A DNA stretch of 64,000 nt from Candidatus Moraniibacteriota bacterium (GTDB taxonomy: Bacteria; Patescibacteriota; Minisyncoccia; Moranbacterales; UBA2206): NCBI GenBank assembly GCA_049304095.1, contig JBAQNU010000029.1, positions 34,222 to 98,221 of the forward strand, read 5' to 3'. The position numbers were made by a program, and so were the translations under genes. Positions 1 through 40,883 of this stretch are shown here, piece after piece. The notes beneath the pieces are model-generated. The model was not told where the DNA came from, made no database searches, and was given only the letters and a program-made list of their open reading frames with translations. Within the stretch, counting starts at the first letter, position 1. Each line of letters starts with the position of its first letter.

Positions 1-1
1 T

Positions 2-706
2 ATTCTCACATTAGCTGTCCGTTCACAAGAAATTTCCGGTTTAGGTTTTTTGGGTGTGGATGTGGCTATTGACAATGAGCGCGGTCCGGTCATTTTGGAA
101 CTTAATGCTCGACCAGGGCTTTCCATCCAAGTAGCTAATCTTGATGGCTTAAAAGGACGCTTGAGAAAAGCCGCTGGCATCAAAATTAAAACTCTCAAAA
201 AAGGCATTCGCGTCGGCATGGATCTTTTTGGTGGAGAAATCGAAGAAGAATTGGAAGAAATTTCCGGTAAAAAAGTGATTGGCACCGTGGAAAAAGTGAA
301 ACTCATCGGCAAGGATGGCAAAGAAATCGAGGTGGAAGCCAAAATTGATACGGGAGCCGGATTCTCATCGATTGACGAGAACTTAGCAATAAGCCTAGGT
401 TTCGCAGAGACAATTGAAAAATTCAAAGAGCAAGGCTTTCCTCAATTCTTATCCCAAGAAGACGCACGCAATCTGGATAAAGAAGAAAAAGATAAACTAT
501 TGAAAACAATTCCGGATTTAGCAGACACAGCCATTATCCATTCGTCCCATGGAACAACTTACCGGCCGATGATAAAAATAAATATCCTGATGGATAACCT
601 TGATGTTTTGGCAAAAGTATCCATCATCAACCGCTCTGATCTGAACTACCCAATTATTATCGGCAAAAGAAATCTGACTAAATTTTTAATTGATGTGAAC
701 AAATAA
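2..706 (+). CDS. 5'-truncated CDS: C-terminal end of a RimK-like ATP-grasp domain fused to a retropepsin-like (RimB/DUF785 'putative ATP-dependent zinc protease') domain
   Basis: The reading frame is open from window position 2. GPVILELNARPGLS is a typical RimK ATP-grasp C-terminal motif. It is followed by AKIDTGAGFSSID, a DTGA aspartic-protease-like signature as in RimK-associated protease domains. Confidence 0.6.
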   Translation: MLTLAVRSQEISGLGFLGVDVAIDNERGPVILELNARPGLSIQVANLDGLKGRLRKAAGIKIKTLKKGIRVGMDLFGGEIEEELEEISGKKVIGTVEKVKLIGKDGKEIEVEAKIDTGAGFSSIDENLAISLGFAETIEKFKEQGFPQFLSQEDARNLDKEEKDKLLKTIPDLADTAIIHSSHGTTYRPMIKINILMDNLDVLAKVSIINRSDLNYPIIIGKRNLTKFLIDVNK

Positions 707-1668
707 TGCTAAAAAATCAAACTATTATAAAAAAAGTTGTCCAGGAAATGGGCGGGACTATAGAAAGGATAATTCCCGAAAGAAGTTATTATTATATCAA
801 ACTAGGAGAAGAAAAAATATTTATCAATCAAAAATTCGTCATTAACAGCGACTTATTCTCCAGAAAACAACCAACTAACTTCAAAGACTTAACCTATGTA
901 TTTCTAAGGGATAATGACATTCCTACGCCCAATACGGTTTGTTTCTACAGAAAATCCCTGACCGAAGAAAAGATGGCGCAAGAACTTCAAAAGCTTTCCT
1001 ACCCCATTGTAATAAAAGACGCCAGTGGATCGTATAGTCTAGGTGTTTTTACTGATATAAAAGATCAGGAAGAGGCGAGAGAGGTTATTTTAAAAGAAAT
1101 AAAAAAATTTCCCTCTCTTATTGCCCAAGAGATGGTTTTTGGAAGAGAATATAGAATATTAGTCTTGGAAGACAGGATTATTGGTGCTCTGGAAATGATC
1201 CCTCCTAGAATTTTTGGAGATGGAGAAAAGACCACCAGAGAATTAATAGAAAATAAGCAAGAAAAAACAGAGAAAAGAACCCCGCTTGATACAATTCTTG
1301 TAGAGCTTTTGCAAAAACAAGCAGAGACGCTAACTAGCATACCAAAGAAAGGCAAGGAGATATGGCTAAGAACGAGCTCCTGCCTGGCTGAAGGAGGAGA
1401 AACAACTGATTCAACCGACATCATCAATGAGGATGTTAAAAAGCTCTGCATAAAGGCAGCCAGGGCTGTTGATAAAAAATTAGCTGGCCTGGATGTTATA
1501 TGTGACGACATAACAAAAAGTCCGCTAGAGCAAAAGATAAACATCATCGAAGCTAACCGCAGGCCTGATTTATATATACATTACAACCCTACTCATGGAA
1601 AAACTAGGGATGTGATAAAAAATATCATCGAATTTATCTTAAAACTAAAAAGGGATTCTAAAATTTAA
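706..1668 (+). CDS. ATP-grasp protein resembling the N/G (ATP-grasp) domain of cyanophycin synthetase CphA
   Basis: 320 aa ORF whose ATGA start overlaps the upstream stop. It carries an ATP-grasp core (KDASGSYSLGV, RIFGDGEKTTRELIE). The C-terminal IIEANRRPDLYIHYNPTHGKTRDV matches the CphA G-domain end pattern (V)IEVN..PG..MH..P..G.PRNV. Confidence 0.6.
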   Translation: MLKNQTIIKKVVQEMGGTIERIIPERSYYYIKLGEEKIFINQKFVINSDLFSRKQPTNFKDLTYVFLRDNDIPTPNTVCFYRKSLTEEKMAQELQKLSYPIVIKDASGSYSLGVFTDIKDQEEAREVILKEIKKFPSLIAQEMVFGREYRILVLEDRIIGALEMIPPRIFGDGEKTTRELIENKQEKTEKRTPLDTILVELLQKQAETLTSIPKKGKEIWLRTSSCLAEGGETTDSTDIINEDVKKLCIKAARAVDKKLAGLDVICDDITKSPLEQKINIIEANRRPDLYIHYNPTHGKTRDVIKNIIEFILKLKRDSKI

Positions 1669-1684
1669 ATTTAATCGAAAAACT

Positions 1685-2644
1685 ATGAAAAAAGTAATGA
1701 TACTTTTCGGCAAAAGCGATTGGAGAAAAGCTAAGCCTTTTTCCAATAAAGAGTATATGTATTCTTATGAATATTTTTATGACATCTGCAAAAAAGGAGG
1801 AATTCAAATGTATCGAGCCTCCTATGAATGGTATGATTATAAAAATCATATCTTTAGGCATGCCTGGATATTTGAAGGCAAGGGCGGAAAATGGAAGAAA
1901 GTTGATAATATTAAGCCTGATCTAATATATGACAAGACTAAGGCTAGGATGGAAGTATATTATAAAAAAGAGTTAATGAGAGAGCATTATCCGTTTATAA
2001 ATGATCTGAACTTCACTCAATTGATTGATGATAAACTCACAATAAGTCTATTGCTTGAAAGATGGTGCAAAAAAAACTGGGTCATAAATAACAAGGCTGA
2101 TTTGAAAAAATTTCTTCCTAACATAAAAACTTCCCTAGCCGTTCTGAAACCCATGATAGAGAGCGGTGGAAAAGGCATACAAATTCTGACCAAGAAAAAA
2201 CTTCTAGAAAAATCAACCATCGACCGCCCTTATATTCTTCAGGAGTTTGTAGATTCATCTTCCGGGGTGCCGGGTGTAAGTTATGGAATGCATGATCTTA
2301 GATTGGTTTTCGTGAACAATAAGATAATCTATACCTATATCCGTGAGCCTCAAAAAGACAGTTTTTTGGCTAATCTTTCCCAGGGCGGTCGCCTGTTTAT
2401 TGTTCCTAAAGATAAACTTCCGAAATCTCTGCGACCTATAATTAGTTACGCCAACAGGCTATTTAAAACTTTCGAACCCAGAATATATTCTATTGACCTC
2501 ATGTTTGATAAAAAAAAGCGTCCATGGATCGTTGAACTCAATTCGATGCCTGGTTTATTTTTTACTCCCGAGGAAAAACCCTATATGCTGGAAATGTACG
2601 CTTCTTTATTGGCTATCTTTAGGCAAAAACTAGAACTTAAGTAA
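1685..2644 (+). CDS. second ATP-grasp family protein (RimK/CphA-like)
   Basis: 319 aa ORF whose C-terminal IDLMFDKKKRPWIVELNSMPGLFF is the ATP-grasp closing motif. It sits between the CphA-G-like and Mur-ligase-like genes. Confidence 0.5.
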   Translation: MKKVMILFGKSDWRKAKPFSNKEYMYSYEYFYDICKKGGIQMYRASYEWYDYKNHIFRHAWIFEGKGGKWKKVDNIKPDLIYDKTKARMEVYYKKELMREHYPFINDLNFTQLIDDKLTISLLLERWCKKNWVINNKADLKKFLPNIKTSLAVLKPMIESGGKGIQILTKKKLLEKSTIDRPYILQEFVDSSSGVPGVSYGMHDLRLVFVNNKIIYTYIREPQKDSFLANLSQGGRLFIVPKDKLPKSLRPIISYANRLFKTFEPRIYSIDLMFDKKKRPWIVELNSMPGLFFTPEEKPYMLEMYASLLAIFRQKLELK

Positions 2645-2657
2645 TAAACATTCTTTT

Positions 2658-3923
2658 ATGAAAATAATTTCAATCACCGGAACAAAAGGAAAAACAACCA
2701 TCACAAGAGGGCTCAGCTATTTGATCAACAAGCTTGGAATCACAACTCTCCGCGTCGATACTGATGGCCACTATATCAACGAAAAGCAAAAAAGCACTCT
2801 TCGCGATAGCGCCGACTTTTTCCATTTGGTTCCAACGGTATGTCCCGGAAAATTTCTTTGGGAAATGAAAAAATTTCATCCAAACTTCACCGCCATACTT
2901 GAAACAGCCATCGGAAGTAGCAACCTTCCTGGATTGGGATATGGATATCACAATATTGGAATTTTTTCTAACGTTTTTGAGGATCATCTCGGTGCAACAA
3001 AAAGGCTCAAAAAGAGAAGTGATATTGCTAAGGCCAAGCGCTTTATATTTTCCGAAGTCAGCAAATACGGTTATCTAATTTTTAACGCCGATGATAAGCT
3101 GGTTTGTTCACAGCTAAAATTTATCCCAAAAAGATTTATTGGAACACTTATTCCGGTTGGTTTTAATTTTAAATATTTTCCCCTGAAAAGCCACTTAGAT
3201 TCTGGTGGAATGGCTATTTCAAAAAAAGATGATTATCTCATTTTAAAAACTAAGACGACCATAAAAAAAATTCTTAACCTGAAAAATATCCGCTGGACAT
3301 TTGAAGGAAACTATTTGCCCTCAATTTATAATTTAATGTTTATTATCGGAGGAATATACGCTCATCAGGATAAAAGAATACCTAAAAATTTAACTGCGCT
3401 GTTAGAAAAATATACCCTAGACGAGCAGGGTGGAAGACTAACGTTGTTTGAAAACAAAAAAGGAGTAAAAATAATTCTCGATTTTGCCCATGAAAAATAT
3501 TCCTTAAGAGAAATTGGAAAATTAGCTAAAAAAATAACTACCAAAGGAAAAGCTGTCGGAGTTTTGCGACTTTCTCCCGACAGAACCGATGAGATGATTA
3601 TCAATACGGGCGAGTTTATTGCCCAAAATTATGACTATCTACTTATTTATGACAAAATTGACGGTGTAAATAAAAAAACTCATAAGGGCTCTGGGAATAT
3701 TCCTTCTCGAAAAATAGGGGAGGTTTCCAGCCTTTTTCTTAAAGGAATTTTGCGATCAAAAAAACGCGGGGTGGCGGAAAGAATTATTCTCGAAAAATCT
3801 GCCATAGAAAAAGCCTCAAAAATAGTAACGCCTGGAGATGTTGTTGTTGTTATATCAGGGGAAAATCACAAAAAAACCATTGGTTATATAAAAAAATATT
3901 TCGAAGCCAATTTGGCAAAGTAA
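2658..3923 (+). CDS. Mur ligase family protein resembling the M domain of cyanophycin synthetase
   Basis: ITGTKGKTTITR is a Mur-ligase P-loop. VDTDGHYI, AILETAIGSSNLPGLGY and NVFEDHLG parallel the CphA M-domain motifs TTTDGIYI, AVLETARGG..GLGF and NVAADHLG. Confidence 0.65.
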   Translation: MKIISITGTKGKTTITRGLSYLINKLGITTLRVDTDGHYINEKQKSTLRDSADFFHLVPTVCPGKFLWEMKKFHPNFTAILETAIGSSNLPGLGYGYHNIGIFSNVFEDHLGATKRLKKRSDIAKAKRFIFSEVSKYGYLIFNADDKLVCSQLKFIPKRFIGTLIPVGFNFKYFPLKSHLDSGGMAISKKDDYLILKTKTTIKKILNLKNIRWTFEGNYLPSIYNLMFIIGGIYAHQDKRIPKNLTALLEKYTLDEQGGRLTLFENKKGVKIILDFAHEKYSLREIGKLAKKITTKGKAVGVLRLSPDRTDEMIINTGEFIAQNYDYLLIYDKIDGVNKKTHKGSGNIPSRKIGEVSSLFLKGILRSKKRGVAERIILEKSAIEKASKIVTPGDVVVVISGENHKKTIGYIKKYFEANLAK

Positions 3924-3988
3924 TCCCTTGATACTCCCCCCAAAAAATGCTAAACTGCGTATTAGCTAATTAGTTTAGAATTAGTTTT

Positions 3989-6571
3989 ATGCAAAATATC
4001 GTATCTCCCAAGCTTCCTTCCCAGTTTAAGCCAAAAAAACGACATTGGTTCTCGGGAAAGTGGAATTGGAAATTGATTTTCAAGTTTTTTGGCATTGGCG
4101 CAGGCGTTGTTTTTCTGTTCGTTATTAGTGTTTTCGCCTATTTCTACAAGGATCTCCCTAATCCCAACAACCTCAATAATCGCTTCATTGCCGAATCAAC
4201 CAAAATCTATGACCGCACCGGCGAGCATTTGCTCTATGATGTGCATGGCGAAGAAAAACGCACTCAAATTCCCTTCTCTGAAATGCCTGATGTGCTTAAA
4301 TTTGCCACAATCGCCCTGGAAGACCAAGGTTTCTATTCTCATCATGGCATTGAGCTGAGCGCTATCGTCCGCGCCGTTTTGAAAGATATTCTGCATCGTG
4401 GTGTTGCGCAAGGCGCATCAACCATCACTCAGCAACTCATCAAGCAATCCGTGCTTTCCCCGGAAAAAACCATTTCGCGCAAAGTCAAAGAAGTAATTCT
4501 TTCACTAGAACTGGAAAGAAAATTTTCCAAAGATGAAATTTTGGCGATGTACCTCAATCAGATTCCCTATGGCTCCAATGCCTATGGGGCCGAATCTGCC
4601 GCGCGAACTTTTTTTAGCAAAGCCGCCAAAGACCTCACTCTCGACGAATCGGCCCTGCTCGCCGCTCTGCCTCAAGCTCCATCATATTATTCCCCCTATG
4701 GTAGCCACACGGACGCCCTAAAGGGTCGCCAGGAATACGCACTTACTCAACTAGCAAAGCTGGGTTATATCTCACAAGAAAAAGCTGATGAGGCCAAACA
4801 AGTGGACGTTCTTTCTAAGATAAAAAGACCATCGGAAAACATTTCTGCCCCACATTTTGTGATGTATATTAAAGAATATTTAGAAAAAAAGTATGGTGGT
4901 GATGCAGTTGAACAGAGTGGTCTCAAGGTCTACACCACGCTCGATTGGGACAAACAAATGGCCGCTGAAAAAGCCGTGCGTGAAGGCGCAGAAAAAAACG
5001 CCAAAATCTATGGCGCCGGCAATGCCGCGCTTGTAGCAATGGACCCGAAAACCGGACAAATTCTCGCAATGGTGGGTAGCAAAGACTATTTCAAAGAAAG
5101 CGAGCCAAAAGGTTGCTCTTCCGGAAAAAATTGTGTCTTTGAGCCAAATGTTAATGTCGCGACATCACTCCTGCAACCAGGCTCATCCTTTAAACCCTAT
5201 GTCTATCTCACCGCTTTTGAAAAAGGCTACACACCAGAAACTAATCTTTGGGATGTAGACACTAATTTCAGCACAGATGATGGAAAAATTTATGATCCCA
5301 AAAACTATGACGGAAAAAATTCTGGACTTCTGCAGATGAAAGACTCCCTCGCCCGCTCGCTTAATGTTCCAGCCGTCAAAACCCTCTATTTGGCTGGCGT
5401 AAAAGAATCGATCGAAACAGCCAAAAAGATGGGCATCACTACGCTCAATGAGCCGGATCGCTATGGACTATCACTTGTTTTGGGTGGCGGCGAAGTAAAG
5501 TTACTTGACCATGTCAATGCCTTTTCCACCTTTGCTACCGGCGGAATCCAACATCCCACTGCATCCATCCTACGCATTGAGGATAATAAAGGCACTGTCT
5601 TGGAAAAATATACGCCAAAAACGGGCGAGCAAGTGATTGAAGAAAAATATATCGCCATGATTGATTATATTCTTTCCACCAACGCTCTACGCGCTCCGGT
5701 TTTTGGCGATAAAAATCCCTTGAGTTTTACTGACCGCCCAGTGGCTGCCAAAACCGGCACAACCAACGAATGGCGTGATGGTTGGACAATGGGCTACACG
5801 CCGTCTCTGGCTGTCGGAGTTTGGGCAGGCAACAATGATCATTCCATCATGAAACAAGGTGCGGATGGTGTTTTTGTGGCCGCTCCGATTTGGCGTAGTT
5901 TTATGGATCAAACGCTTTCCAACTACAATATTGAACAGTTTCCTAAATATGAACCAGAAGAAACCGGAAAAGCCGTCCTTGATGGAAAATTAGAAATGAA
6001 AAAAGAATTAAAGGTCTGCAAAATTCCCGGCTCCAAAAATGATTATTGCCTCGCCTCTTCTGCTTGCCCTGATGATGAGGTGGAAAAAAAGAAATTTTCC
6101 GATTCGCATAGTATTCTCTATTATGTCAATAAAGATGATCCACGCGGAGATCCACCCAAAAATCCCGAGGATGAACCACAATTTAAAAATTGGGAAAAAG
6201 CTATTAAGGATTGGTTGAAAAGTAATAAGGATTCTGCCAATGCCGCTCCTACGGAGGATTGCACCGACAAGGATTTTTCAAAATATGAAATCAGTATTGA
6301 CAACATTTCCGCTTCCGGCGGAAATCCAATCACCTCCTCCTCTTTTGATATTTCGGTTAAAATCTCCGCTCCTTTCGGCGTTAAAAAAGCCACCATCAGT
6401 GTTGACGGAAAAGAGATTTCTTCTAACGGCTCCGACTCCTTTAGCACCTCCTATTCCGTTCCGGATGACAAGAAAAAATCCACACTAACAATCAAAGTTG
6501 AGGCGGAAGATGACAAGGGTAACTCCGATTCGGATTCAATCAAAGTCGACACTAATATTCCGACGACGTAA
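3989..6571 (+). CDS. class A penicillin-binding protein (PBP1A, bifunctional transglycosylase/transpeptidase) with a C-terminal extension
   Basis: N-terminal TM anchor and GT51 motifs (ALEDQGFYSHHGIE, TITQQL). Transpeptidase motifs SSFKP (SxxK) and KTGTT. Confidence 0.9.
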   Translation: MQNIVSPKLPSQFKPKKRHWFSGKWNWKLIFKFFGIGAGVVFLFVISVFAYFYKDLPNPNNLNNRFIAESTKIYDRTGEHLLYDVHGEEKRTQIPFSEMPDVLKFATIALEDQGFYSHHGIELSAIVRAVLKDILHRGVAQGASTITQQLIKQSVLSPEKTISRKVKEVILSLELERKFSKDEILAMYLNQIPYGSNAYGAESAARTFFSKAAKDLTLDESALLAALPQAPSYYSPYGSHTDALKGRQEYALTQLAKLGYISQEKADEAKQVDVLSKIKRPSENISAPHFVMYIKEYLEKKYGGDAVEQSGLKVYTTLDWDKQMAAEKAVREGAEKNAKIYGAGNAALVAMDPKTGQILAMVGSKDYFKESEPKGCSSGKNCVFEPNVNVATSLLQPGSSFKPYVYLTAFEKGYTPETNLWDVDTNFSTDDGKIYDPKNYDGKNSGLLQMKDSLARSLNVPAVKTLYLAGVKESIETAKKMGITTLNEPDRYGLSLVLGGGEVKLLDHVNAFSTFATGGIQHPTASILRIEDNKGTVLEKYTPKTGEQVIEEKYIAMIDYILSTNALRAPVFGDKNPLSFTDRPVAAKTGTTNEWRDGWTMGYTPSLAVGVWAGNNDHSIMKQGADGVFVAAPIWRSFMDQTLSNYNIEQFPKYEPEETGKAVLDGKLEMKKELKVCKIPGSKNDYCLASSACPDDEVEKKKFSDSHSILYYVNKDDPRGDPPKNPEDEPQFKNWEKAIKDWLKSNKDSANAAPTEDCTDKDFSKYEISIDNISASGGNPITSSSFDISVKISAPFGVKKATISVDGKEISSNGSDSFSTSYSVPDDKKKSTLTIKVEAEDDKGNSDSDSIKVDTNIPTT

Positions 6572-6640: not shown

Positions 6641-7972
6641 TTAAAATAATTCTTTTATTTTTTCTGCACCATAATAAAACACTTCTCTTCCAATTTTTTT
6701 TGAAAAAAGAAATTTATTGTTTTCAAGATATTTTAAGTCATTAAAGGCAGTCATCCTTGAAATATCATTAATACTCATGTGCGCCCGAATGGCGGTTCTT
6801 CCGTCTGGATTGTCACACAAATATTGAAGAAGTTTTATTTGCCTATCATTAAGCTCGTGCTTACTTTTAGCAATAGCCCCCATTTGAGAATTTTTCCTTG
6901 ACTGGTCACTTAAATAATCATCAAACTCTCTACGCGCCAATTCGATTTTTCTCGTATTATAATCAATGAAATAAGTAAGATCTTGCTCATCTTGTTCAGT
7001 ATACACATAGGCCTTAATATATTGAGCATGCGCCCTTTTTATTGTCCGAGAAATAGGCAAATACGCGAAAGCCCAATAATTTTTCTTCAACAAATACCAA
7101 TAAAACATAAGCCGTGCCAATCTTCCGTTTCCGTCCACAAATGGATGCAAATATCCAATCCAAAAATGGAGCATTATCGCTTTTATCACTGGGTGCAAAA
7201 AAGCCTCTTCCAAGTCATCATTCGCAAAGGCAATAAACCGCTCAATTTCAATCTTCACAAACTTTTCACTAGGTGGCTCATGATAAATTAGATTTTCTTC
7301 ATTAGCTACAATAATTTCATCGCTGTCCAGGCGTAAACGCCCCTGATCCCCTGGATTAACTTGGGTATTTTTGGTGATTATCCGGTGAAGCTCTAAAAGT
7401 AATGCTAAATCTAACTTCTTATTTTTATAGTCTTCCTCGATCAATTTGATCGCTTCGTAATTATTGACAATCATATGCTCTGAAATTGTCTTTGGTTTTT
7501 TCCCTTCTCGAAGCATCTGCTTAGCTAATTTTCTAGTTGTTACGGCGCCTTCTAACTGAGAAGACGCGATCGCCTCCTCCATGACACCTTTCGAGATAAA
7601 TTTGTATTTTGTTTTATCGTTTATGTCTTTGCTGAAGGAAAATAAATTTCCACCCATATTAAGATCAATTTCATGCAAAAATTTTTCCAACCTAGGCAAT
7701 TTTAACCATTTAAAGTTTTCTCCTGTTTCTGTCCTGATTGGACTCCTTGCGAATTGAGCCTCCCTTATTGTTTTCACAAGAAACCAAAATTCTTCGGCAG
7801 AGATTCCTAGTGGTAAGCTTTTGTATTTTACCTTATCCCAATATTGATAAACCGGCTCCATTGTCTCATCAATAAGTGGAAAAAGCTCTTCTTTCCTCTC
7901 TGAAATAAGCAATTTTATTGCTTTTTCCTTGTCAACATTTGATAAATCGGGTTTTTCTAGCTTATAATGCAT
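6641..7972 (-). CDS. fic: Fic/DOC family protein (class II Fic with an internal inhibitory motif)
   Basis: Canonical Fic motif HPFVDGNGRLARLM. An SxxxEG-type inhibitory motif (SSQLEG) lies N-terminal. 443 aa. Confidence 0.9.
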   Translation of the reverse strand: MHYKLEKPDLSNVDKEKAIKLLISERKEELFPLIDETMEPVYQYWDKVKYKSLPLGISAEEFWFLVKTIREAQFARSPIRTETGENFKWLKLPRLEKFLHEIDLNMGGNLFSFSKDINDKTKYKFISKGVMEEAIASSQLEGAVTTRKLAKQMLREGKKPKTISEHMIVNNYEAIKLIEEDYKNKKLDLALLLELHRIITKNTQVNPGDQGRLRLDSDEIIVANEENLIYHEPPSEKFVKIEIERFIAFANDDLEEAFLHPVIKAIMLHFWIGYLHPFVDGNGRLARLMFYWYLLKKNYWAFAYLPISRTIKRAHAQYIKAYVYTEQDEQDLTYFIDYNTRKIELARREFDDYLSDQSRKNSQMGAIAKSKHELNDRQIKLLQYLCDNPDGRTAIRAHMSINDISRMTAFNDLKYLENNKFLFSKKIGREVFYYGAEKIKELF

Positions 7973-10320: not shown

Positions 10321-11073
10321 TCATTTAATTCCTTTCCAAATAAAATTGATAAAGTTTTTCTGCAAATCAGCAATCGCCTTATCTTTAATGATAACACCGA
10401 TTAGATTTTTGAAAGAGATGAAAGCAACTGTATCATCCACTACAAGAAGATTAGTTTCAAATTTGAATCCTTCTGGCAGTTGTTTGCTTTTGATAAATTT
10501 TTTATATTCCGGATTATTTAGTGTTTCAATATTATTTTCAGTTTTTTCGACTAAACTATAAAGCATTCCGCCATTATTATAGAGAATCATGAGCAAGTCA
10601 TGATTTTCTTTTATTGAGAAGAGGTTAAAGAGATTGTCAGGAGAAAACATGGAATAGATATTTTTATGCGTATCAAAGATCTGCTGATAAACCTTTTTTA
10701 TCCCTTCCTTGCCTTCATAGAAACTGATGTTGGGTTTTTGAAATTTTGCGGAATAAAGCGACTCGAGCTCTGGAATAACTTTTTCCATTTTTCTTTTTTT
10801 TTCTTCAATTTGTCTTTTTTGCACATCCAAAAGCCCCGTGATTTTTCTTGGATTTTCAAGACAATAGGAAATCCGCTTTCCATCAACTGTTTTATAGACC
10901 AAGCCGGAACTAGAAAGACTTTCAATGTATTCATAGACAGTCGTTCTTTTAATGCCAGTTTTGCGAGAAATATCCGTGATCGTTCCTTTGCCTAAAACTA
11001 AAATAGCCAGATAAACAGCTATTTCTTTAGCGGATAAGCCTAAAATGCTAAGTTTTTCTTTAATATTTTCCAT
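10321..11073 (-). CDS. TrmB-like HTH transcriptional regulator, paralog 1
   Basis: The N-terminal LGLSAKEIAVYLAILVLGKGTITDISRKTGIKRTTVYEYIESL is a TrmB-type winged HTH. It is paralogous to 12688..13452 and 20778..21515. Confidence 0.7.
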   Translation of the reverse strand: MENIKEKLSILGLSAKEIAVYLAILVLGKGTITDISRKTGIKRTTVYEYIESLSSSGLVYKTVDGKRISYCLENPRKITGLLDVQKRQIEEKKRKMEKVIPELESLYSAKFQKPNISFYEGKEGIKKVYQQIFDTHKNIYSMFSPDNLFNLFSIKENHDLLMILYNNGGMLYSLVEKTENNIETLNNPEYKKFIKSKQLPEGFKFETNLLVVDDTVAFISFKNLIGVIIKDKAIADLQKNFINFIWKGIK

Positions 11074-12673: not shown

Positions 12674-12779
12674 TTTTGTTTTTTTCTTTATTCAACCTCA
12701 GACGCACCACCTTTACTTGAATTTTTCGCCCCAAGCCACATGCTCTCAAAAATCGCCCGAAAGCCATTGTGGATTTTTT
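12674..12779. repeat. 106-bp direct repeat copy B, forming the 3' end of the TrmB-like gene 12688..13452
   Basis: See copy A. The two copies flank the SDR gene about 1.16 kb apart. Confidence 0.8.
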
Positions 12780-13452
12780 GACTCTCAATGATAATCCCGA
12801 GATCCTCCCCATAGGAAATGATACCGATTTTCGTTTTGCCATAGATTTTTATTTCAATATCAAACTCAGAAAAAACATTATTGGACACAAACTGGGTTAC
12901 GACAATGAATTTTTGCATTTTTTGTGAGGCTTCCCTATTCACCTGTGTATCCGGAGCAAGCACGCGCATCCAAATCTTTTTCTCTACTCGCTTGGGATTG
13001 TAATATTCCCAAAAAAACTCTTCGCCCAAATTGAGATAGGGATAGGGCATCCAAGTCAGGATTTCGCTGTCTGGATATTTTAGTGTATCTTCAAAAATTT
13101 CTTTCACACTCTCCACTCCTTCAAAATAGCTAATCCGTGGCTTTTTTTCCAAAAGGTTCATCATGGAGATCAGCTGGGGCATCGCTTCTTCCAAGCCTTT
13201 TTTCTTTTCTTCCAACGAATCAATCATTTTTTGCGGGTTTTCAGCGAAAAAAACCGGCCGGGTTTTGTGACGCGATTGATTGATGAGCCTTTTTTCCTTG
13301 AGAATTTCCAGCATATCATAGACCGTAGAGCGCTTTATCTGCGACTTTTTTGTAATTTGGACAATTGTCGCCTCGCCCAACTCCAAAATCGCCAGATAGA
13401 CCTTGGCCTCGCGCTCCCCCAGTCCTGCCTTGATTAATTGTTGTAAAACCAT
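12688..13452 (-). CDS. TrmB-like HTH transcriptional regulator, paralog 2
   Basis: N-terminal LGEREAKVYLAILELGEATIVQITKKSQIKRSTVYDMLEILKEKRL. Its last ~25 aa are encoded by repeat copy B. Confidence 0.7.
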   Translation of the reverse strand: MVLQQLIKAGLGEREAKVYLAILELGEATIVQITKKSQIKRSTVYDMLEILKEKRLINQSRHKTRPVFFAENPQKMIDSLEEKKKGLEEAMPQLISMMNLLEKKPRISYFEGVESVKEIFEDTLKYPDSEILTWMPYPYLNLGEEFFWEYYNPKRVEKKIWMRVLAPDTQVNREASQKMQKFIVVTQFVSNNVFSEFDIEIKIYGKTKIGIISYGEDLGIIIESQKIHNGFRAIFESMWLGAKNSSKGGASEVE

Positions 13453-18060: not shown

Positions 18061-18627
18061 TTAAAGCGCCATATCCATAAACTCTTTTCTCTTCTCGTGG
18101 TCTTCCTTGAAAATTCCCCGGGCGTCCATTGTGGTCATTTCGCCGTTACTTTTTTTGACTCCACGCATTTCTTTGCAGAGATGTCGGGCTTTCATGATCA
18201 GGATTGTGCCTTTTGGTTTTAACTCTTTTTCAATCGCATCAAGAATTTCTCTGGTTAGAGTTTCCTGAACTTGCAGTTTGGCGCAGTAATAGTCAACTAG
18301 GCGAGCAATTTTACTCAGACCAATGATTTTGCCATTTGGGATGTAGCCAAAATAATATTCTCCAAAAAATGGCACCATATGATGTTCACAGTGGCTATAG
18401 AAATAGCCATGATCAGAAACTAGTTGCTCAGAACTTGAATTGGAATTGCTAAAGCTGGTCAACTTGGGCTTCTTTTTTAGATCATAGCCCAAAAACATTT
18501 CCTGATACATCCGCGCCACCCTATCTGGCGTGTCCCCGAGTCCCTCTCGAGATGGATTTTCGCCAAGTTCAATTAGAATATTTCTTACTAAATTTGCTAA
18601 TTTTTTCGTGTTCATATTATTCAGCAT
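18061..18627 (-). CDS. folE: GTP cyclohydrolase I
   Basis: GLGDTPDRVARMY, CEHHMVPF and GLSKIARLVDYYCAKLQVQE are signature FolE motifs. Confidence 0.85.
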   Translation of the reverse strand: MLNNMNTKKLANLVRNILIELGENPSREGLGDTPDRVARMYQEMFLGYDLKKKPKLTSFSNSNSSSEQLVSDHGYFYSHCEHHMVPFFGEYYFGYIPNGKIIGLSKIARLVDYYCAKLQVQETLTREILDAIEKELKPKGTILIMKARHLCKEMRGVKKSNGEMTTMDARGIFKEDHEKRKEFMDMAL

Positions 18628-18967
18628 AAGTTATTGATGAATTATCTGCTTCCCAAACTGTAATCGCTATATTTGTGTTTTTGTTGTTTTTAAAATTAAG
18701 CTTGATCTTATCGTGAATATATTTGGAGATTAATTCCGCTGTTGGTTCAAAAGGCAAAAGCTTGTTGAGATTTTTGTGATCAAGTTCATTCACGATTTCT
18801 TTCAACTTAGTAAAGTCGATGACCATATTTTTTTTAAGTTTTTTTGAATTTATTTCAATCAAAACTTTCCAGTTGTGGCCATGAATCGAATCGTTGCATT
18901 TTTTATCATAGGCATTGGTCAGTTGATGCGCTGCACTGAAATTTGTGGTTAATCTTAGAGTGTACAT
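18617..18967 (-). CDS. queD: 6-carboxy-5,6,7,8-tetrahydropterin synthase / 6-pyruvoyl-tetrahydropterin synthase family
   Basis: FSAAHQL and HGHNW motifs. 116 aa. The gene overlaps folE by 11 nt. Confidence 0.75.
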   Translation of the reverse strand: MYTLRLTTNFSAAHQLTNAYDKKCNDSIHGHNWKVLIEINSKKLKKNMVIDFTKLKEIVNELDHKNLNKLLPFEPTAELISKYIHDKIKLNFKNNKNTNIAITVWEADNSSITYAE

Positions 18968-18986
18968 ATTGTTGTTACTTTAAAAA

Positions 18987-19694
18987 TTATTTTATTCTTA
19001 GCTCATATAATCTCCATTTGTAATCCATGCGAAAGGGTTTTTCGGCAATGATTTGCAACTCATACCCGGCATCAATAATCATTTTTTCTAAACCATCAAA
19101 GTCTGCATTTGAATTTTCCCTCTTTCCACTTTGCAAATTAGCATGAGGCAACAAAATTCGTCCGTCATTAGTAAGATGTTTTTTAGCTTGCGCTAGAAAG
19201 TTTTTGTGGATTATGTGATTATTGTCATATAGCGCCAAGTCGATTAAGTCTTTTCCTCCGTCAAAATCAATAAAGGGAAGATTAGCTAAGATTAAATCAT
19301 ATTTTTTAGAGCTCTCAATCCTCGCGAAAAGATCTGACAATATGAATGTTATTTTTTCATCTACTTTGTTTATTTGAGCATTTTCCTTGGAACATTTTAA
19401 CGCTTCGGGATTTATATCAATCGCGTCAACATGCTTTGCTCCAAAAAGAGCTGCGCTAATTGCTTCAATTCCACTCCCCGTGCCAATGTCAGCAACTTCG
19501 GCATTCGCGAGATTAGGAAAATTCTTCACAAATTCGCCGAGCAAAAATTCTTGTTGCGGCGGAAATACTTCGGGAAAGATCTTGAGTGAAATGTTTTTTC
19601 CCACGCAATTAACACTCATCGGATATGCTCCTTTTTCAGATTCACGTTTAATTTGATTGCGAAAATAAATTGTTGATTCTGGATTGATTTTCAT
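18987..19694 (-). CDS. class I SAM-dependent methyltransferase (small-domain HemK/RsmC-like)
   Basis: DIGTGSGIEAI (motif I) and ANLPF (NPPY-like motif IV). Confidence 0.6.
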   Translation of the reverse strand: MKINPESTIYFRNQIKRESEKGAYPMSVNCVGKNISLKIFPEVFPPQQEFLLGEFVKNFPNLANAEVADIGTGSGIEAISAALFGAKHVDAIDINPEALKCSKENAQINKVDEKITFILSDLFARIESSKKYDLILANLPFIDFDGGKDLIDLALYDNNHIIHKNFLAQAKKHLTNDGRILLPHANLQSGKRENSNADFDGLEKMIIDAGYELQIIAEKPFRMDYKWRLYELRIK

Positions 19695-20777: not shown

Positions 20778-21515
20778 ATGCAAACACCCCATAAAGACCT
20801 CGAGGAAGCTGGGCTAAAAGAAAAGGAGGCTAAAATCTATCTCGCCATCCTTGAGCTTGGAGAGGCTAATATCGCTCAAATTAGCCTTAGATCAGGCATA
20901 AACCGTAGCACAGTCTATTTGGCGCTGAAAACCTTAAAAGAAAAGGGCTTGCTTTTAACTGTCAAAAAGAATAAAACGCTTTTTTATGCCGAAGATCCGC
21001 GAAAAATGCTGGGTGATTTGGAAAAAAAGAAGGTTGTGTTGGAACGGATAATGCCCAACCTTTTGGCTAGCTTTGCTTTTATTGATAATAAGCCGGAAGT
21101 AAAGTATTTCGAGGGCGAAGAAGGGATCAAGAAAATCTATGAAGACGTCCTAAAAACGCCCAACTCGGAGATGTTGGCCTGGTATTCCAATGATTATCAG
21201 GAATTTTTTGACGAAAAATTCTTTTTTGAATATTTTATTCCCGAGCGGAAAAGAAAAAAAATTTGGCTCCGCTCAATCTACCCAGAAGACCCATCAATGC
21301 GCGCCCTGGCTTCAAATAATGAGGAGCAGTTGCGCCAATCGCGCTTTATCAGCAATGAAAAATTTAAAATTGAAAGTGAAATTTGTCTTTATGAGCACAA
21401 TAAAATAGGCATCATTGCCTATAAAGATAAGCTAGGGATCATAATCTCCAGTCAGACTATTTTCAACACTTTGAAATCAATTTTTGAGGTGATGTGGGAC
21501 GGGGCAAGCAAATAA
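20778..21515 (+). CDS. TrmB-like HTH transcriptional regulator, paralog 3
   Basis: LKEKEAKIYLAILELGEANIAQISLRSGINRSTVYLALKTLKEKGLL. 245 aa. Confidence 0.7.
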   Translation: MQTPHKDLEEAGLKEKEAKIYLAILELGEANIAQISLRSGINRSTVYLALKTLKEKGLLLTVKKNKTLFYAEDPRKMLGDLEKKKVVLERIMPNLLASFAFIDNKPEVKYFEGEEGIKKIYEDVLKTPNSEMLAWYSNDYQEFFDEKFFFEYFIPERKRKKIWLRSIYPEDPSMRALASNNEEQLRQSRFISNEKFKIESEICLYEHNKIGIIAYKDKLGIIISSQTIFNTLKSIFEVMWDGASK

Positions 21516-22923: not shown

Positions 22924-24087
22924 CTAATTTTTAATTGGCATCACGATATAGGTAAAGCCAGTGACAAGCTCTCCATTTTCAGAAGCCACCTCACGCAATG
23001 CCACTGGCGAAGCATCACTGTTGGCTAGGAGAGCTAGTTTATTAGAGGTGATAGCGTTGATTCCTTCAAGAAGATATTTCAGATTGAAAACCACCTCTTG
23101 AGATGCGCCCTGCACTTCAAATTTAATCTCAGTGGAGTTTTCACCCACTTCCGCGCTCTTGGTGTTGAGAAAAATATTTTTCGCCGTCTCGTCGATTTTA
23201 AGCACCACTTCACTGGATTTACTATTCACAAAAACTCCCGCGATTTTTAGCGCATTTTGTAATATCTTTTTTTCTCCTAAGATAGTTGTTTTATAACTCT
23301 CCGGCATAATATGCTTATATTCAGGATATTTTCCATTAATGAGGCGCGAAACAATTTTTATTCCATCAACCTCAAAAAATATCTGTCCTTCTTCAATAAA
23401 AATTTGCACCACACTTTTTTCATCCAAATTACCAGAAATAATCCGATTAAGTTCCACTATTGTGCTCGCGGGAACAATAATACTTTTGGTTTTTTCCATA
23501 AAACTTTGATATCTCACTAGATCACACTCACAATCCGTGATCGCTAGCACATATTCTGATAAACGAAAACCATCAGTGGAAGCAAAAAAGATAAATTTTT
23601 CATCAAAAACCACATTTATCCCAGAAAGTTCCTGTCTAGCGTCACTGCGCGCAACGGAAATTAAAATTTTAGCAAAAATATCCCGCAAGCGCCCACTAGA
23701 AACACCCAAAATTGCTTCGGTGCTTTTTTGAGGAATAAGTGGAAAATCTTCCGCTGAAAAACCTTTAATATTTGCCTTTGTTAGGCCACTTTTTATTTTC
23801 AAATTATCTCCATTTTTTTCTAATTCAATATTCTCTCCATCAATTAAATTAGTAGAAAAACTACCCAAAAACTTAGCTGGAATAGTGATTTTCCCTTCCT
23901 GCTCAATTTTCGCTCCAATTTTAATTTCAATTCCAATCTCTAAATTTGTTGCCACAACCTTCAGATAACTCTTAGTTGCTTCAAGGAGGATATTATTTAA
24001 GATTGGTAGTGAATTTTGCTTAGATACAATTCGTTCAGAATTAATAATGGCTTTTTTAAAATTCTCTCCTGTGCAAATCAGTTTCAT
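22924..24087 (-). CDS. dnaN: DNA polymerase III beta sliding clamp
   Basis: 387 aa three-domain clamp. N-terminal MKLICTGENFKKAI..SLPILNNILLEA. It lies directly downstream of dnaA and oriC. Confidence 0.9.
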   Translation of the reverse strand: MKLICTGENFKKAIINSERIVSKQNSLPILNNILLEATKSYLKVVATNLEIGIEIKIGAKIEQEGKITIPAKFLGSFSTNLIDGENIELEKNGDNLKIKSGLTKANIKGFSAEDFPLIPQKSTEAILGVSSGRLRDIFAKILISVARSDARQELSGINVVFDEKFIFFASTDGFRLSEYVLAITDCECDLVRYQSFMEKTKSIIVPASTIVELNRIISGNLDEKSVVQIFIEEGQIFFEVDGIKIVSRLINGKYPEYKHIMPESYKTTILGEKKILQNALKIAGVFVNSKSSEVVLKIDETAKNIFLNTKSAEVGENSTEIKFEVQGASQEVVFNLKYLLEGINAITSNKLALLANSDASPVALREVASENGELVTGFTYIVMPIKN

Positions 24088-24353: not shown

Positions 24354-25742
24354 TTAGACTATTTTGTAAATTTGCTCTTGAATTGCGGTGAGCTCTTCTT
24401 TTAATTTTTGATCTTTTTCCAAATCCTTAGTTATTTTCTCATAAGCGTGAATGGCGGTGGTGTGATCTCGGCCACCCATTTTTTCCCCAATACCAGGAAA
24501 TGAACAATCCAACTCGCTACGCATAAGATACATGGCGATTTGACGGGGGCGAATAATCTCCTTTTTGCGGTTTTTTGCGACTAGTTCGTCAAGAGTGGTG
24601 TCATAAAAAAGAGCAACAGCTTTGAAGATATGTTTATAGGTAACACCCTTCTTTTTTCCACTGGAAATTAGTTCTGAGAGTTGTGCCTCGGCAAAAGTCT
24701 TGGTGATTTCATTAATATTGCCTAGTTGCGCCAAGACGGCGAGGCGGTTTAGGGCGCCTTCCAGCTCGCGGATGTTGTTTTTAATGTTTGTGGCAATGAA
24801 TAGCAGCGCGTTGTCATCAATGGGAATGTGCTCCGCAACAGCTTTTTTCTTAAGAATAGCGATTCTAGTTTCGAGATCGGGTTTTGAAACATCGGCGATC
24901 ATTCCGCCCTCAAAGCGTGAGCGCAAACGATCTTCCAGAATTTGAATTTCTTTGGGTGGTCGGTCGCTAGTGAGGACGATTTGCTTGTTTAGTTGATAGA
25001 GGAAGTTAAAAATGTGAAAAAATTCTTCCTGGGTTTTTTCTTTGCCTGAAATAAATTGAATGTCGTCAATAATTAAAATATCAATTTTTTGATAATAGGC
25101 TTTAAATTCGTTAATTTTTTGATTTTGGAGTGCGTCTACCAGGTTCGCTGTGAATCTTTCTGAGGTGATGTATTTTATGCGAAAACCGGGATCTGTTTTG
25201 AGTAGCTCATTGCCAATCGATTGAGCGAGGTGGGTCTTTCCCAGTCCCACGCCTCCATAGAGAAAAAGAGGATTGTAGATACGGCCTAGGTTTTGTGAAA
25301 CAGCGAAGCAGGCCGCTCTAGCTAACTCATTGTTGGAGCCAACTACAAAGTTTTCAAAAGTATATTTTGGATTAAGATTATTTTCTAGGTCGATAGGTGT
25401 TGCTTCGGCGTAGGTTTGGTTTCTTGCCGGTTGTTTTGGTGGCGCAATAATCGCATCCATCATCACCTCTCGGCGGATGGGCTTTTCTGTTTCTTTTGTG
25501 GCATCAATGACGCAAGAAATTGATTTGATGTCAGGTTGAATATTGCGAAGAGCCTTTAGGATGTGAGAATTGAATTTATTTTCCAGCCATTCTTTGGCAA
25601 AACCATTAGGAACGCTGATTATGACGTGCCCAGAGTTGTTTGATTGAATGGCGGTTTTTTTAAACCAAGTGATGAAGGTAGCCCTTGAAAGAGAGACCTC
25701 GATTTCAGCTAAAGTGGCTTGCCAAAGCTCTTCGTTGGTCAT
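24354..25742 (-). CDS. dnaA: chromosomal replication initiator DnaA
   Basis: AAA+ Walker A GGVGLGKTHL. The C-terminal DNA-binding domain IAMYLMRSELDCSFPGIGEKMGGRDHTTAIHAYEKI is a DnaA signature. Confidence 0.95.
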   Translation of the reverse strand: MTNEELWQATLAEIEVSLSRATFITWFKKTAIQSNNSGHVIISVPNGFAKEWLENKFNSHILKALRNIQPDIKSISCVIDATKETEKPIRREVMMDAIIAPPKQPARNQTYAEATPIDLENNLNPKYTFENFVVGSNNELARAACFAVSQNLGRIYNPLFLYGGVGLGKTHLAQSIGNELLKTDPGFRIKYITSERFTANLVDALQNQKINEFKAYYQKIDILIIDDIQFISGKEKTQEEFFHIFNFLYQLNKQIVLTSDRPPKEIQILEDRLRSRFEGGMIADVSKPDLETRIAILKKKAVAEHIPIDDNALLFIATNIKNNIRELEGALNRLAVLAQLGNINEITKTFAEAQLSELISSGKKKGVTYKHIFKAVALFYDTTLDELVAKNRKKEIIRPRQIAMYLMRSELDCSFPGIGEKMGGRDHTTAIHAYEKITKDLEKDQKLKEELTAIQEQIYKIV

Positions 25743-26115: not shown

Positions 26116-26139
26116 TTGTTTTTTAAAAAAACAAACTGG

Positions 26140-26475
26140 ATGTTGCCTTTCCAAAATAGACTAAAAAACAAAGAAGACTTTGAAAAGACTTATCGCTATG
26201 GAAAGTCTCTTTTTTGTGATAAACTAGTGATGAGGGTGGCGAAAAACGGGCTTCCGGTTGTGCGCGTTGGCATTTCTATTGGAGTGAACTTCTCAAAAAG
26301 TGCCGTTTTGCGCAATCAGTTAAAGCGTCAAATTAGAGCATTCTTTCGAGCGGAGTTAGAAAAAATCAAGCCCGGGCAAGATATTGTTATCATTTTGCAA
26401 AAAGGCTATGACTCTTCCAAAAGTCCAGTCGAAATTATTTCAAAGTTACTTGCCAAGAGTGGTCAATATATCTAA
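26140..26475 (+). CDS. rnpA: ribonuclease P protein component
   Basis: Basic 110-aa protein directly after rpmH. LPFQNRLKNKEDFEKTYRYGKS is RnpA-like. Start taken at the ATG at 26140; the ORF track begins at TTG 26116. Confidence 0.75.
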   Translation: MLPFQNRLKNKEDFEKTYRYGKSLFCDKLVMRVAKNGLPVVRVGISIGVNFSKSAVLRNQLKRQIRAFFRAELEKIKPGQDIVIILQKGYDSSKSPVEIISKLLAKSGQYI

Positions 26476-35394: not shown

Positions 35395-35407
35395 AAGACA
35401 TTTTAAA

Positions 35408-35848
35408 TTATTTAGGAAAAGCTTTCCCATTAGGACAAAAGCTGAGGCGATAGTTTTTTCCAGAAGCGTTTTCATTAACATCAAAAGGGACGGACAGGGT
35501 TACTTTTAGTTTGCAAGCAGCTGCTTTGGTGATGTCGAGTGTCTTCAGGAAATCTTTTTCTGCTGCATCTCGAGCGGCTTGAATATTGGGATTAAGAATA
35601 GCGATAATAAATCCTTGATCTTGCGGATAATAATCAATGGAATAGTTGGTGTTTTCCTTAAAGTTGACACCGTCCATGGAAAGAGGCTTTCCGCTGGGAA
35701 GTTTATGTGGATCGTTAATGGAAACTGTTCCGCTGGGCGTTTTTACAATTAATTGATTTTCTTTTTGGGGAAAAACAAAATAAATAATTAGGCCAATGAT
35801 TGTTAGGCCAAGAAAAATAGATAAAAGTATGGTTGCCTTTTTGGACAT
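35408..35848 (-). CDS. small membrane-anchored hypothetical protein
   Basis: N-terminal TM (MSKKATILLSIFLGLTIIGLIIYFVF) followed by a periplasmic domain. Start taken at the internal Met. Confidence 0.4.
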   Translation of the reverse strand: MSKKATILLSIFLGLTIIGLIIYFVFPQKENQLIVKTPSGTVSINDPHKLPSGKPLSMDGVNFKENTNYSIDYYPQDQGFIIAILNPNIQAARDAAEKDFLKTLDITKAAACKLKVTLSVPFDVNENASGKNYRLSFCPNGKAFPK

Positions 35849-35879
35849 AAGATGAATATAAAATGAATTAGTAGAAAAA

Positions 35880-40286: not shown

Positions 40287-40320
40287 ATTTTTTAGGTCAC
40301 TACATTAAGAATCAAAAAAA

Positions 40321-40866: not shown

Positions 40867-40883
40867 ATTTTTTATCGCTTAAT

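Follow-up and report, generated by a model that had tools for sequence, protein, structure and literature searches.

The first 6.6 kb of a 64,000-nucleotide stretch of DNA from a Candidatus Moraniibacteriota bacterium (contig JBAQNU010000029.1, positions 34,222 to 98,221 of the forward strand; the whole stretch is called the window here) contain five open reading frames (ORFs). Four of these (ORF1 to ORF4) are co-directional, nearly abutting genes for ATP-dependent ligases and are followed by a gene for a class A penicillin-binding protein, PBP1A (Table 1). The families of ORF2 ("G-like") and ORF4 ("M-like") are the closest known relatives of the ATP-grasp (G) and Mur-ligase (M) domains of the cyanophycin synthetase CphA1, and the original prediction made from this DNA had described the genes as a cyanophycin synthetase split across separate genes. 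The kinship with the CphA domains stands; the idea of one divided enzyme is not supported. The reading favoured on balance is that the genes make up a modular operon whose enzymes are cytoplasmic, ATP-dependent ligases forming amide bonds in the manner of RimK-RimB and RloABC, related to CphA but not a CphA in pieces, and that the product is probably an amino-acid oligomer or polymer rather than cyanophycin. Cyanophycin is an unlikely product because the aspartate pocket of the G domain is replaced, the CphA N domain is absent, the pairing of G-like and M-like genes is not conserved, and the M-like proteins form a clade that is sister to the CphA M domains instead of nested among them. The data do agree with the broader proposal, in which several subunits form a non-ribosomal ligase system for amino acids that includes its own protease. 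The presumed host in the candidate phyla radiation (CPR, Patescibacteria) is correct, a protein identical to ORF4 being recorded from a Candidatus Moraniibacteriota metagenome-assembled genome.

Table 1. Genes at the start of the window and the domains of ORF1
Feature	Position	Strand	Description	Motif or match
ORF1	2..706	+	ATP-grasp/retropepsin-like fusion; 5' end cut by the window edge	
ORF1, residues 1-58			C-terminal end of an RloC-like / ATPgrasp_ST ligase	E-L-N Mg-binding motif at nt 98-106
ORF1, residues ~88-233			RimB/RloA-like retropepsin domain after an acidic linker	DTGA at nt 347-358 (residues 116-119)
ORF2 (G-like)	706..1668	+	320-residue ATP-grasp	Best match CphA G domain
ORF3	1685..2644	+	RimK-superfamily ATP-grasp ligase	
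ORF4 (M-like)	2658..3923	+	421-residue Mur-type ligase	Best match CphA M domain
PBP1A	3989..6571	+	Class A penicillin-binding protein	Transglycosylase E 6.6e-60; transpeptidase E 8.4e-23

Domain content and catalytic residues of the ligases

ORF2 corresponds to the ATP-grasp part of cyanophycin synthetase. It matches the cyanophycin synthetase model TIGR02068 at model positions 213-479 (E 5.9e-51, 173 bits), followed by the GshAB ATP-grasp (145 bits), while the RimK-type model TIGR00768 gives 49.8 bits, under its cutoff of 143.4. D-Ala-D-Ala ligase models reach 31-41 bits, and this identity is rejected against the 173 bits for CphA. In a sequence search of the PDB, CphA1 chains come first (7wac, E 1.8e-30). 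The AlphaFold (AF2) model of ORF2, with a predicted local distance difference test score (pLDDT) of 89.6, fits the G domain of TeCphA1 with TMq 0.80 across 324 superposed columns, GshF being the next fold (TMq 0.75). ORF2 spans the G domain end to end, and the CphA N domain (PF18921) has no match in ORF1-4. Judged from sequence and predicted structure, ORF2 is a complete CphA-type G domain and nothing more. Its N-terminus is conserved across the G-like family, which supports the ATG at 706; the family is large and consists of stand-alone proteins of 303-339 residues.

The residues of ORF2 and 120 relatives (121 members) were compared in TeCphA1 numbering, with roles taken from the papers on TeCphA1 and SuCphA1 (PMC9427784, PMC9262961). 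Invariant in all 121 members are R309, the residue that holds the acceptor carboxylate, and the two Mg ligands of the CphA G domain, E450 and N452 (PMC9427784, PMC9262961). The residues that bind the aspartate substrate in TeCphA1 are R323, N394, S396 and R458 (PMC9427784), and in the G-like family all four are changed: R323 to Met or Leu, N394 to Cys, Ser or Ala, S396 to Ala and R458 to Tyr, the last in 120 of the 121 members, and the new residues are conserved in their turn. At the position of E215, which in CphA holds the Arg side chain of the cyanophycin primer (PMC9427784, PMC9262961), the family shows no conservation and ORF2 has Lys, in a stretch where the alignment is less certain. The G-like protein thus appears to be a working ligase with a different, less polar substrate pocket, and, since the pocket residues are all replaced, aspartate is unlikely to be the substrate of ORF2.

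ORF4 is the counterpart of the M domain. It matches TIGR02068 at model positions 481-860 (E 8.2e-54, 183 bits; MurE 74 bits) and CphA1 in the PDB (7wac, E 4.3e-27), and its AF2 model (pLDDT 93) has the CphA1 M domain as best fold match (TMq 0.82), then MurE. Against the whole CphA1 G and M domains, ORF2 and ORF4 show about 25% identity. ORF4 consists of the central and C-terminal Mur domains, and its P-loop begins at residue 7, from which it follows that, like the CphA M domain, it is without the UDP-binding N-terminal domain. The catalytic residues checked are all present: K12 and T13 of the P-loop, T35, E82, D109-H110, R260 and H278. Across 34 family members these positions are invariant apart from T13 and T35, for which conservation is 90% or more. 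In CphA, the positions of T35 and E82 are Mg ligands, those of R260 and H278 are lid residues contacting the ATP phosphates, and mutating the DH pair at the position of D109-H110 kills the M domain (PMC9427784, PMC9262961). ORF4 is predicted to be catalytically active. Its substrate may be another one: the M-like family has an unvarying motif of its own, (Y/F)DKIDG, at the position of KEDDDxRGR in CphA and of DNPR in MurE. The DNPR motif of MurE reads the incoming amino acid, and (Y/F)DKIDG would accordingly imply a different amino-acid substrate for the M-like ligase. MurT/GatD, PgsB/CapB and FolC identities were considered for ORF4 and rejected, no such model matching at E below 0.01.

Between the two lies a further ATP-grasp, as had been proposed. 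ORF3 matches RimK PF08443 (39.7 bits, E 5.1e-10), ATPgrasp_ST (38.9 bits), TTL (32.5 bits) and YheCD (29.4 bits) in Pfam, with a weak GSH-S match as well, and scores 47.0 bits against TIGR00768, under the cutoff of 143.4; no sequence match to ORF3 was found in the PDB. Its E-L-N motif lies within WIVELNSMPGL, and orthologues with 71-74% identity occupy the same slot in two related loci, L142 and L143 (loci are given by L numbers).

The visible part of ORF1 has 234 residues. It matches ATPgrasp_ST PF14397 (53 bits, E 3.6e-14) and passes the cutoff of 27 for the retropepsin-like family PF05618, now RimB-like (41 bits, E 2.2e-10). The last 58 ligase residues alone give 67 bits (E 1.2e-18) against TIGR02291, the RloA3/RloA NCBIfam models match at 1e-10 to 1e-7, and TIGR00768 gives 20.3 bits for the fragment, under its cutoff of 143.4. 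Full-length relatives have 457-502 residues and the same fusion; one of them (L074) scores 284 bits against TIGR02291, just under the cutoff of 314, and a full-length homologue reaches 233 bits against PF14397. The original prediction had seen here a RimK-type ATP-grasp fused to a retropepsin-like protease: the fusion is confirmed by Pfam and by the full-length relatives, while the ligase part appears to be of the RloC / TIGR02291 / ATPgrasp_ST type and not RimK proper. ORF1 has 348 homologues, mostly from CPR; most of the 120 that were listed have both Pfam domains, and the ATP-grasp/retropepsin fusion is common in CPR metagenomes. Among the 12 full-length fusion homologues that were listed, 11 keep DTGA (L131 is without a match), and so do the stand-alone forms. 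Protease-ligase fusion arose twice independently, as ST::RimB and as RimB::RimK (L108), which argues for tight functional coupling, and, since the protease domain is joined to the C-terminus of a cytoplasmic ligase, it should be cytoplasmic too.

The four genes lie on the + strand at the positions first proposed, and the motifs quoted for them, IIEANRRPDLYIHYNPTHGKTRDV, ITGTKGKTTITR, VDTDGHYI, AILETAIGS..GLGY, NVFEDHLG and DTGA, all occur in the translations; an E-x-N motif is present in all three ATP-grasps. The intergenic gaps from ORF1 to PBP1A are -1, 16, 13 and 65 nt, and the ORF1/ORF2 overlap, formerly given as ATGA at 706, is in fact TAATG (stop 704-706, ATG 706-708). No + strand terminator-like site lies within the four ligase genes, the only one on that strand (4751) being inside the PBP1A gene. 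A weak promoter-like site at 3928-3956 precedes the PBP1A gene, which may have its own promoter there. Promoter-like and terminator-like counts do not exceed shuffled expectation, and neither Shine-Dalgarno motifs nor a significant promoter or terminator signal was found at the operon. By their tight spacing, ORF1-ORF4 look like one operon, in agreement with the original prediction. A public contig of 5.3 kb with identical genes starts 24 nt earlier, so that both it and the window begin inside ORF1; this shared start suggests that assemblies repeatedly break off just upstream, owing to a repeat, an insertion sequence (IS) element or strain variation. PADLOC defence-system models gave no match for ORF1-4, and as far as PADLOC goes an anti-phage defence system is rejected.

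Gene neighbourhoods, families and genomic setting

To compare neighbourhoods, 70 M-like loci were gathered and their neighbours classed with purpose-built hidden Markov models (HMMs). A scan of metagenome contigs with a C-terminal sub-alignment gave 68 loci, and a scan with the full M-like alignment gave 3 family loci and many MurE genes, the generic P-loop pattern saturating. The census took in those non-redundant M-like loci, 31 in all, that have 2.5 kb or more of sequence on both flanks, and a ligase within 4 kb was counted as a partner. A RimK-superfamily ATP-grasp was found at 26 of the 31 loci and a RimB-like protease domain at 23; the gene for a seven-transmembrane (7TM) protein and that for PBP1A each occur at 7/31, and the G-like gene at 6/31. 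Two (L096, L111) of the five partnerless loci adjoin an ATP-grasp_4/LAL-type ligase, as does L004, which falls outside the flank criterion. The M-like ligase almost always travels with some ATP-grasp ligase, and usually this is not the G-like one. Seen from the other side, none of the four loci reached through G-like genes has an M-like gene, and two of them are orphans; a 403-residue gene beside the orphan G-like gene in L140 was considered and is not an M-like ligase. Conservation of the partners as neighbours in related genomes, which the original prediction had set as its own test, therefore holds for the RimK-superfamily and RimB-like partners and fails for the G-like one. Because the M-like/G-like pairing is not conserved, the genes are better seen as interchangeable cassettes of a modular ligase operon than as halves of one enzyme.

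The loci follow two main layouts. In Moraniibacteria the order is ruvC, the 7TM protein, ST-grasp::RimB, a variable ligase set and PBP1A. The variable set may be M-like alone, ORF3-like with M-like, G-like with M-like, G-like with ORF3-like and M-like (the window), grasp299 with ORF3-like, G-like and M-like, M-like with RimK69, or others, and in several relatives the G-like gene directly precedes the M-like gene, which is also the order in CphA. The closest relative found, L143 (79% identity for ORF2, 74% for ORF3 and 65% for PBP1A), has the 7TM protein, ST::RimB, G-like, ORF3-like, a 292-residue RimK-family ligase in the M slot, PBP1A and BacA. L142 has the 7TM protein, ST::RimB, G-like, RimK-like, ORF3-like, YdjC, an IS element (rve) and PBP1A. 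PBP1A is a neighbour in 12 of the loci whose neighbours were classed with the HMMs, and in L142 and L143. The 7TM protein of the relatives has 216-293 residues from the first start codon and matches RloB (NF052267) at positions 313-507 only, that is, the PF14402 part or C-terminal half of RloB, without the transglutaminase part.

In Saccharimonadia the layout is dnaK, dnaJ, the M-like gene, RimB (~160 residues) and RimK; some loci of this layout have the last two joined as RimB::RimK. This RimK partner has a RimK_N domain, scores 309 bits against the S6-glutamate ligase model (cutoff 331) and passes TIGR00768 at 242 bits, and inspection by eye shows no obvious signal-peptide-like segment at the N-terminus of the RimB-like proteins. 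In L088, L090, L091 and L094, small conserved genes follow RimK: one for a secreted-looking protein of ~160 residues, DUF192-like by eye, and one or two for hydrophobic, probably multi-pass membrane proteins of ~160 residues with basic C-terminal tails. A multi-pass membrane protein of ~480 residues comes next in Saccharimonadia loci, and its equivalent in L071 has the Pfam Competence (ComEC) domain.

An exhaustive search for the M-like family gave 88 cluster representatives (50% identity) at E<=1e-30, and canonical CphA1s (~870 residues, matching at ~480-860) come next from E about 4e-30. In all 70 loci and all 88 representatives the M-like protein is stand-alone, with a full length of ~400-450 residues. 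In a neighbour-joining tree with capped distances and MurE as outgroup, M-like proteins and CphA M domains are sister clades (bootstraps 82 and 76; MurE 100), and as the M-like clade is not nested in CphA it is not a recently broken CphA. G-like proteins cluster with CphA G domains and apart from RimK-type ligases. Sequence, fold and tree agree in making ORF2 and ORF4 specific homologues of the CphA domains, as had been claimed, and not proteins of the D-Ala-D-Ala-ligase or MurT type. Two proteins (P0343 and P0349; 599 and 661 residues) have PF18921 joined directly to Mur ligase domains, with no recognisable ATP-grasp between them. In L002 (8015-10551), two tandem M-like paralogues with 45% and 37% identity to ORF4 lie between polA and holA without a nearby ATP-grasp; the contig is labelled uncultured gammaproteobacterium, which may be a binning error.

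The resemblance to CphA is already present in automatic annotation, and all parts belong to known superfamilies. The names that pipelines give to proteins of the two families are "cyanophycin synthetase", "Cyanophycin synthase" or "Mur ligase family protein", and the JGI annotation calls both the G-like and M-like families "cyanophycin synthetase". In the literature that could be searched, no account was found of stand-alone or split proteins of the CphA G-like or M-like kind, of a link between such genes and RimK/RimB or Rlo-like ones, or of a CPR bacterium with an Rlo-like system, so that the arrangement appears, as first supposed, to be undescribed. On the strength of a "cyanophycin synthetase" annotation, a 2026 preprint proposes that some Saccharimonadia may synthesise cyanophycin (bioRxiv 10.64898/2026.09.16.751625). 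Calls of this kind in Patescibacteria, in the style of KEGG or JGI, may be these stand-alone proteins; their domain content should be checked, and stand-alone G-like or M-like calls should not be read as evidence of cyanophycin synthesis.

As for the rest of the window, a Fic-domain protein (6641-7972, -) lies directly past PBP1A and matches the PADLOC SoFic defence-candidate model (E 7.5e-40). Three paralogous putative helix-turn-helix (HTH) regulators stand within 11 kb (10321-11073, -; 12688-13452, -; 20778-21515, +), one TrmB-like by Pfam and two judged by similar N-terminal sequence only; they are interspersed with methyltransferases and a short-chain dehydrogenase/reductase (SDR), and FolE/QueD-like genes were noted by eye only at 18061-19694. 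The genes dnaN (22924-24087, -), dnaA (24354-25742, -), rnpA (26116-26475, +) and yidC (26496-27269, +), assigned by position, N-terminal sequence and synteny with L067 and not by HMM scan, lie at the cumulative GC-skew minimum (~22-24 kb), which places the ligase operon ~20 kb from the likely chromosomal origin; L067 keeps the order PBP1A ... DciA-DnaN-DnaA-RnpA-YidC. A minus-strand block at ~34486-49188 includes two genes connected with type IV secretion, one for a VirB4/TraC/TraG-type P-loop ATPase (40884-42722) and the other for a weak type IV secretion system (T4SS)-pilin-like protein below the Pfam cutoff, together with a 950-residue protein and several proteins of 350-670 residues without a Pfam match, and one with bacterial TSP3 repeats.

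Proposed mechanism and alternative readings

What stays constant from locus to locus is a RimK/RloC-type ATP-grasp, a retropepsin-like protease and, in the lineage of the window, an RloB-like 7TM protein, which is the scheme of RimK-RimB and RloABC. By analogy with RimK and CphA, each ATP-grasp enzyme would lengthen a peptide by one amino acid at a time, after phosphorylating the carboxylate at its C-terminus. The RloC/RimK-type enzyme probably adds acidic residues, and ORF2, since its aspartate pocket is replaced, probably adds a small or non-acidic residue. The M-like ligase would, as in CphA, phosphorylate another carboxylate, most likely that of a side chain, and add an amino acid as a branch or cap, and the fused aspartic protease would limit or recycle the product. 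The 7TM protein upstream and PBP1A downstream in the relatives suggest that the product or target is probably linked to the cell envelope; BacA in L143 and the shuffling of ligases between species also point there, and the dnaK and dnaJ context in Saccharimonadia does not. Because the ligase slots are interchangeable between related genomes, the product should differ between species.

Several points weigh against this reading. The assignment of the M-like ligase to a side chain instead of the backbone is carried over from CphA. The adjacency of PBP1A could be synteny inherited within one lineage. The 7TM gene is placed upstream of ORF1 from the relatives only, the window starting inside ORF1. 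In Saccharimonadia, comEC lies downstream in several loci and no envelope genes stand by the triad. Co-transcription is deduced from gene spacing, and the trees are all neighbour-joining trees, that of the G-like family not separating it from the CphA G domains.

A bolder form of the modular-operon reading may be put forward tentatively, the chances being against it. It would make these loci a hitherto uncharacterised CPR class of multi-enzyme synthetases, in which a free-standing CphA-M-like ligase and interchangeable ATP-grasps (RimK, RloC, G-like or LAL-type) together build a branched polyamide of a new kind. This polymer might, for instance, have a backbone of the alpha-polyglutamate type whose side chains bear amino acids, and its length would be set by the retropepsin. 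The operon would then preserve an unfused, ancestral-like state of CphA, and the single-chain cyanophycin synthetase would have arisen by gene fusion. 

To our knowledge, no characterised enzyme other than cyanophycin synthetase makes a branched amino-acid polymer by coupling an ATP-grasp with a Mur-type ligase, and the ~88 M-like clusters, nearly always beside ATP-grasp ligases, suggest that the logic of CphA is more widely used in modular form. If identified, the products could be new biopolymers or peptide modifications, would give a handle on RloABC with its osmotic-stress, antibiotic-resistance and biofilm phenotypes in Pseudomonas, and would bear on the evolution of CphA.

Among the other explanations, peptidoglycan tailoring fares best, though it is unlikely. 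The ligases would add amino acids to carboxylates or amines of the stem peptide on lipid II or nucleotide precursors and would work with PBP1A, either building a cross-bridge or substituting the carboxylate of D-isoglutamate or diaminopimelate, so that species-specific ligase sets would give species-specific walls. PBP1A stands immediately downstream in all Moraniibacteria-type clusters, with BacA/UppP next in L143, and the variable ligase content resembles the diversity of cross-bridges. MurT offers a precedent, being a ligase of the Mur type that has no UDP-binding domain and uses lipid II as its substrate, and the Rlo phenotypes touch cell shape and osmotic tolerance, with the Vibrio homologues reportedly under VxrAB (PMC11957051). 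Yet the partners of the M-like gene across the family are RimK and RimB, beside dnaK/dnaJ and without wall genes; a cytoplasmic retropepsin fused to a ligase has no obvious role in wall precursors; ORF1-ORF4 gave no MurT, GatD or Fem-type match and weak D-Ala-D-Ala ligase matches; and PBP1A may have a promoter of its own.

Slightly less probable again is C-terminal protein tagging, in which the ATP-grasps would put a short tail on the C-terminus of S6 or of the 7TM partner, the M-like ligase would branch or cap the tail, and the protease would trim it; the outcome would be a regulatory post-translational modification and not a free polymer. This would suit the Saccharimonadia partner, a near-equivalog of the S6-glutamate ligase (309 bits against a cutoff of 331) with a RimK_N domain, and RimB-like proteins that by eye have no obvious signal-peptide-like segment; the RimK-RimB logic is moreover established for RpsF (PMC11957051). 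But no acceptor protein was found, the small neighbours that are conserved are membrane proteins with basic rather than acidic tails, four different ligases exceed the needs of a simple tail, and the ligase in the window is of the RloC type.

A true split cyanophycin synthetase, in which ORF2 and ORF4 would associate non-covalently and polymerise Asp and Arg into cyanophycin or something very similar as a nitrogen store while the protease acts as depolymerase or as primer generator in place of the N domain, is improbable. CphA models and structures are the best matches for both proteins, their catalytic residues are intact, several relatives keep the CphA gene order, and the N domain of CphA1 supplies a primer-generating protease activity (PMC9262961) for which a protease is at hand here. 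Against this stand the replacement of all four aspartate-pocket residues throughout the 121 members, a Lys at the poorly aligned E215 position, the 6/31 and 0/4 counts for the G-like/M-like pair, the lack of an M-like gene in the closest relative (L143), the sister position of the M-like clade and the absent N domain. In addition, neither a cyanophycinase nor an isoaspartyl dipeptidase was seen among the ~26 ORFs of the 64 kb scanned with Pfam, which is an incomplete scan.

Polyglutamylation of a cofactor, with ORF4 as a FolC-like Mur ligase and CofF-/MptN-like RimK ligases building folate- or F420-like glutamate tails, is very improbable: FolC is a member of the Mur ligase superfamily, CofF and MptN are of the RimK family, and ORF2 and ORF3 have weak MptN matches, but ORF4 has no FolC/CofE match at E below 0.01 and resembles CphA far more than anything else, no conserved cofactor genes lie nearby, and the protease and 7TM partners are left without explanation.

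Relation to known ligase systems

The more distant comparisons concern single enzymes. GshF/GshAB (PDB 3ln6, 3ln7) has a C-terminal ATP-grasp of the same subclade as the G domain of CphA, and it is the second-best match of ORF2; unlike GshF/GshAB, the operon has no glutamate-cysteine ligase domain, and there is no sign of glutathione metabolism nearby. With MurE and MurT-GatD, ORF4 shares the central and C-terminal Mur domains, but unlike these Mur ligases it is without a UDP-binding N-terminal domain, DUF1727 or a GatD partner, has DKIDG where MurE has DNPR, and scores 74 bits against the MurE equivalog cutoff of 373.

CphA1 (domains N-G-M, TIGR02068; PDB 7wac, 7lg5) is closer, ORF2 covering its whole G domain and ORF4 its whole M domain. 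The residues in common are the G core (R309, E450, N452) and, in the M domain, the P-loop, the Mg ligands (T522, E558), the DH pair and the lid residues (R731, H748), and by analogy the two-step chemistry of CphA1, an acyl-phosphate followed by amine attack, would be the same here. CphA1 is one polypeptide, whereas here there are separate ORFs with another gene between them, no N domain and a replaced aspartate pocket. Again unlike CphA1, the M-like protein is always stand-alone, is not an obligate neighbour of the G-like one, and is usually found with RimK/RloC-type ligases and a retropepsin. ORF2 (173 bits) and ORF4 (183 bits) both stay below the TIGR02068 cutoff of 850, which is partly expected for single domains.

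The RimK-RimB pair of the RimABK system shows the same pairing of an ATP-grasp alpha-L-glutamate ligase with a retropepsin-like aspartic protease that trims its product. It has been reported that ribosomal protein S6 receives its C-terminal glutamates from RimK, which also makes poly-alpha-glutamate, and that RimB trims the tails (PMC11957051). In Saccharimonadia relatives the M-like gene is in one operon with bona fide RimB and RimK, while the window differs from RimK-RimB in its RloC/ATPgrasp_ST-type ligase, which is joined to the protease, in having three ligases more, and in the absence of RimA.

For RloABC, it has been reported that RloA of Pseudomonas aeruginosa cleaves polyglutamate in vitro; that loss of rloB or rloC suppresses the osmotic, morphology, biofilm and antibiotic phenotypes of the rloA1-3 mutant, the product of RloABC being still unknown; that 96% of the RloB distribution is proteobacterial; and that the Rlo homologues of Vibrio are controlled by VxrAB, a two-component system with a role connected to the integrity of the cell wall (PMC11957051). 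RloA is secreted and has a signal peptide, whereas the protease here is fused to a cytoplasmic ligase and has none. RloB has an inactive transglutaminase domain and a 7TM part, whereas the 7TM protein of the relatives is without the transglutaminase. Unlike RloABC, the operon adds CphA-like and RimK-like ligases and resides in a CPR host. What it appears to have in common with RloABC is a cytoplasmic ATP-grasp close to the TIGR02291 type, a RimB-like retropepsin and, in the relatives, a 7TM protein corresponding to the C-terminal half of RloB, together with a possible link to the cell envelope.

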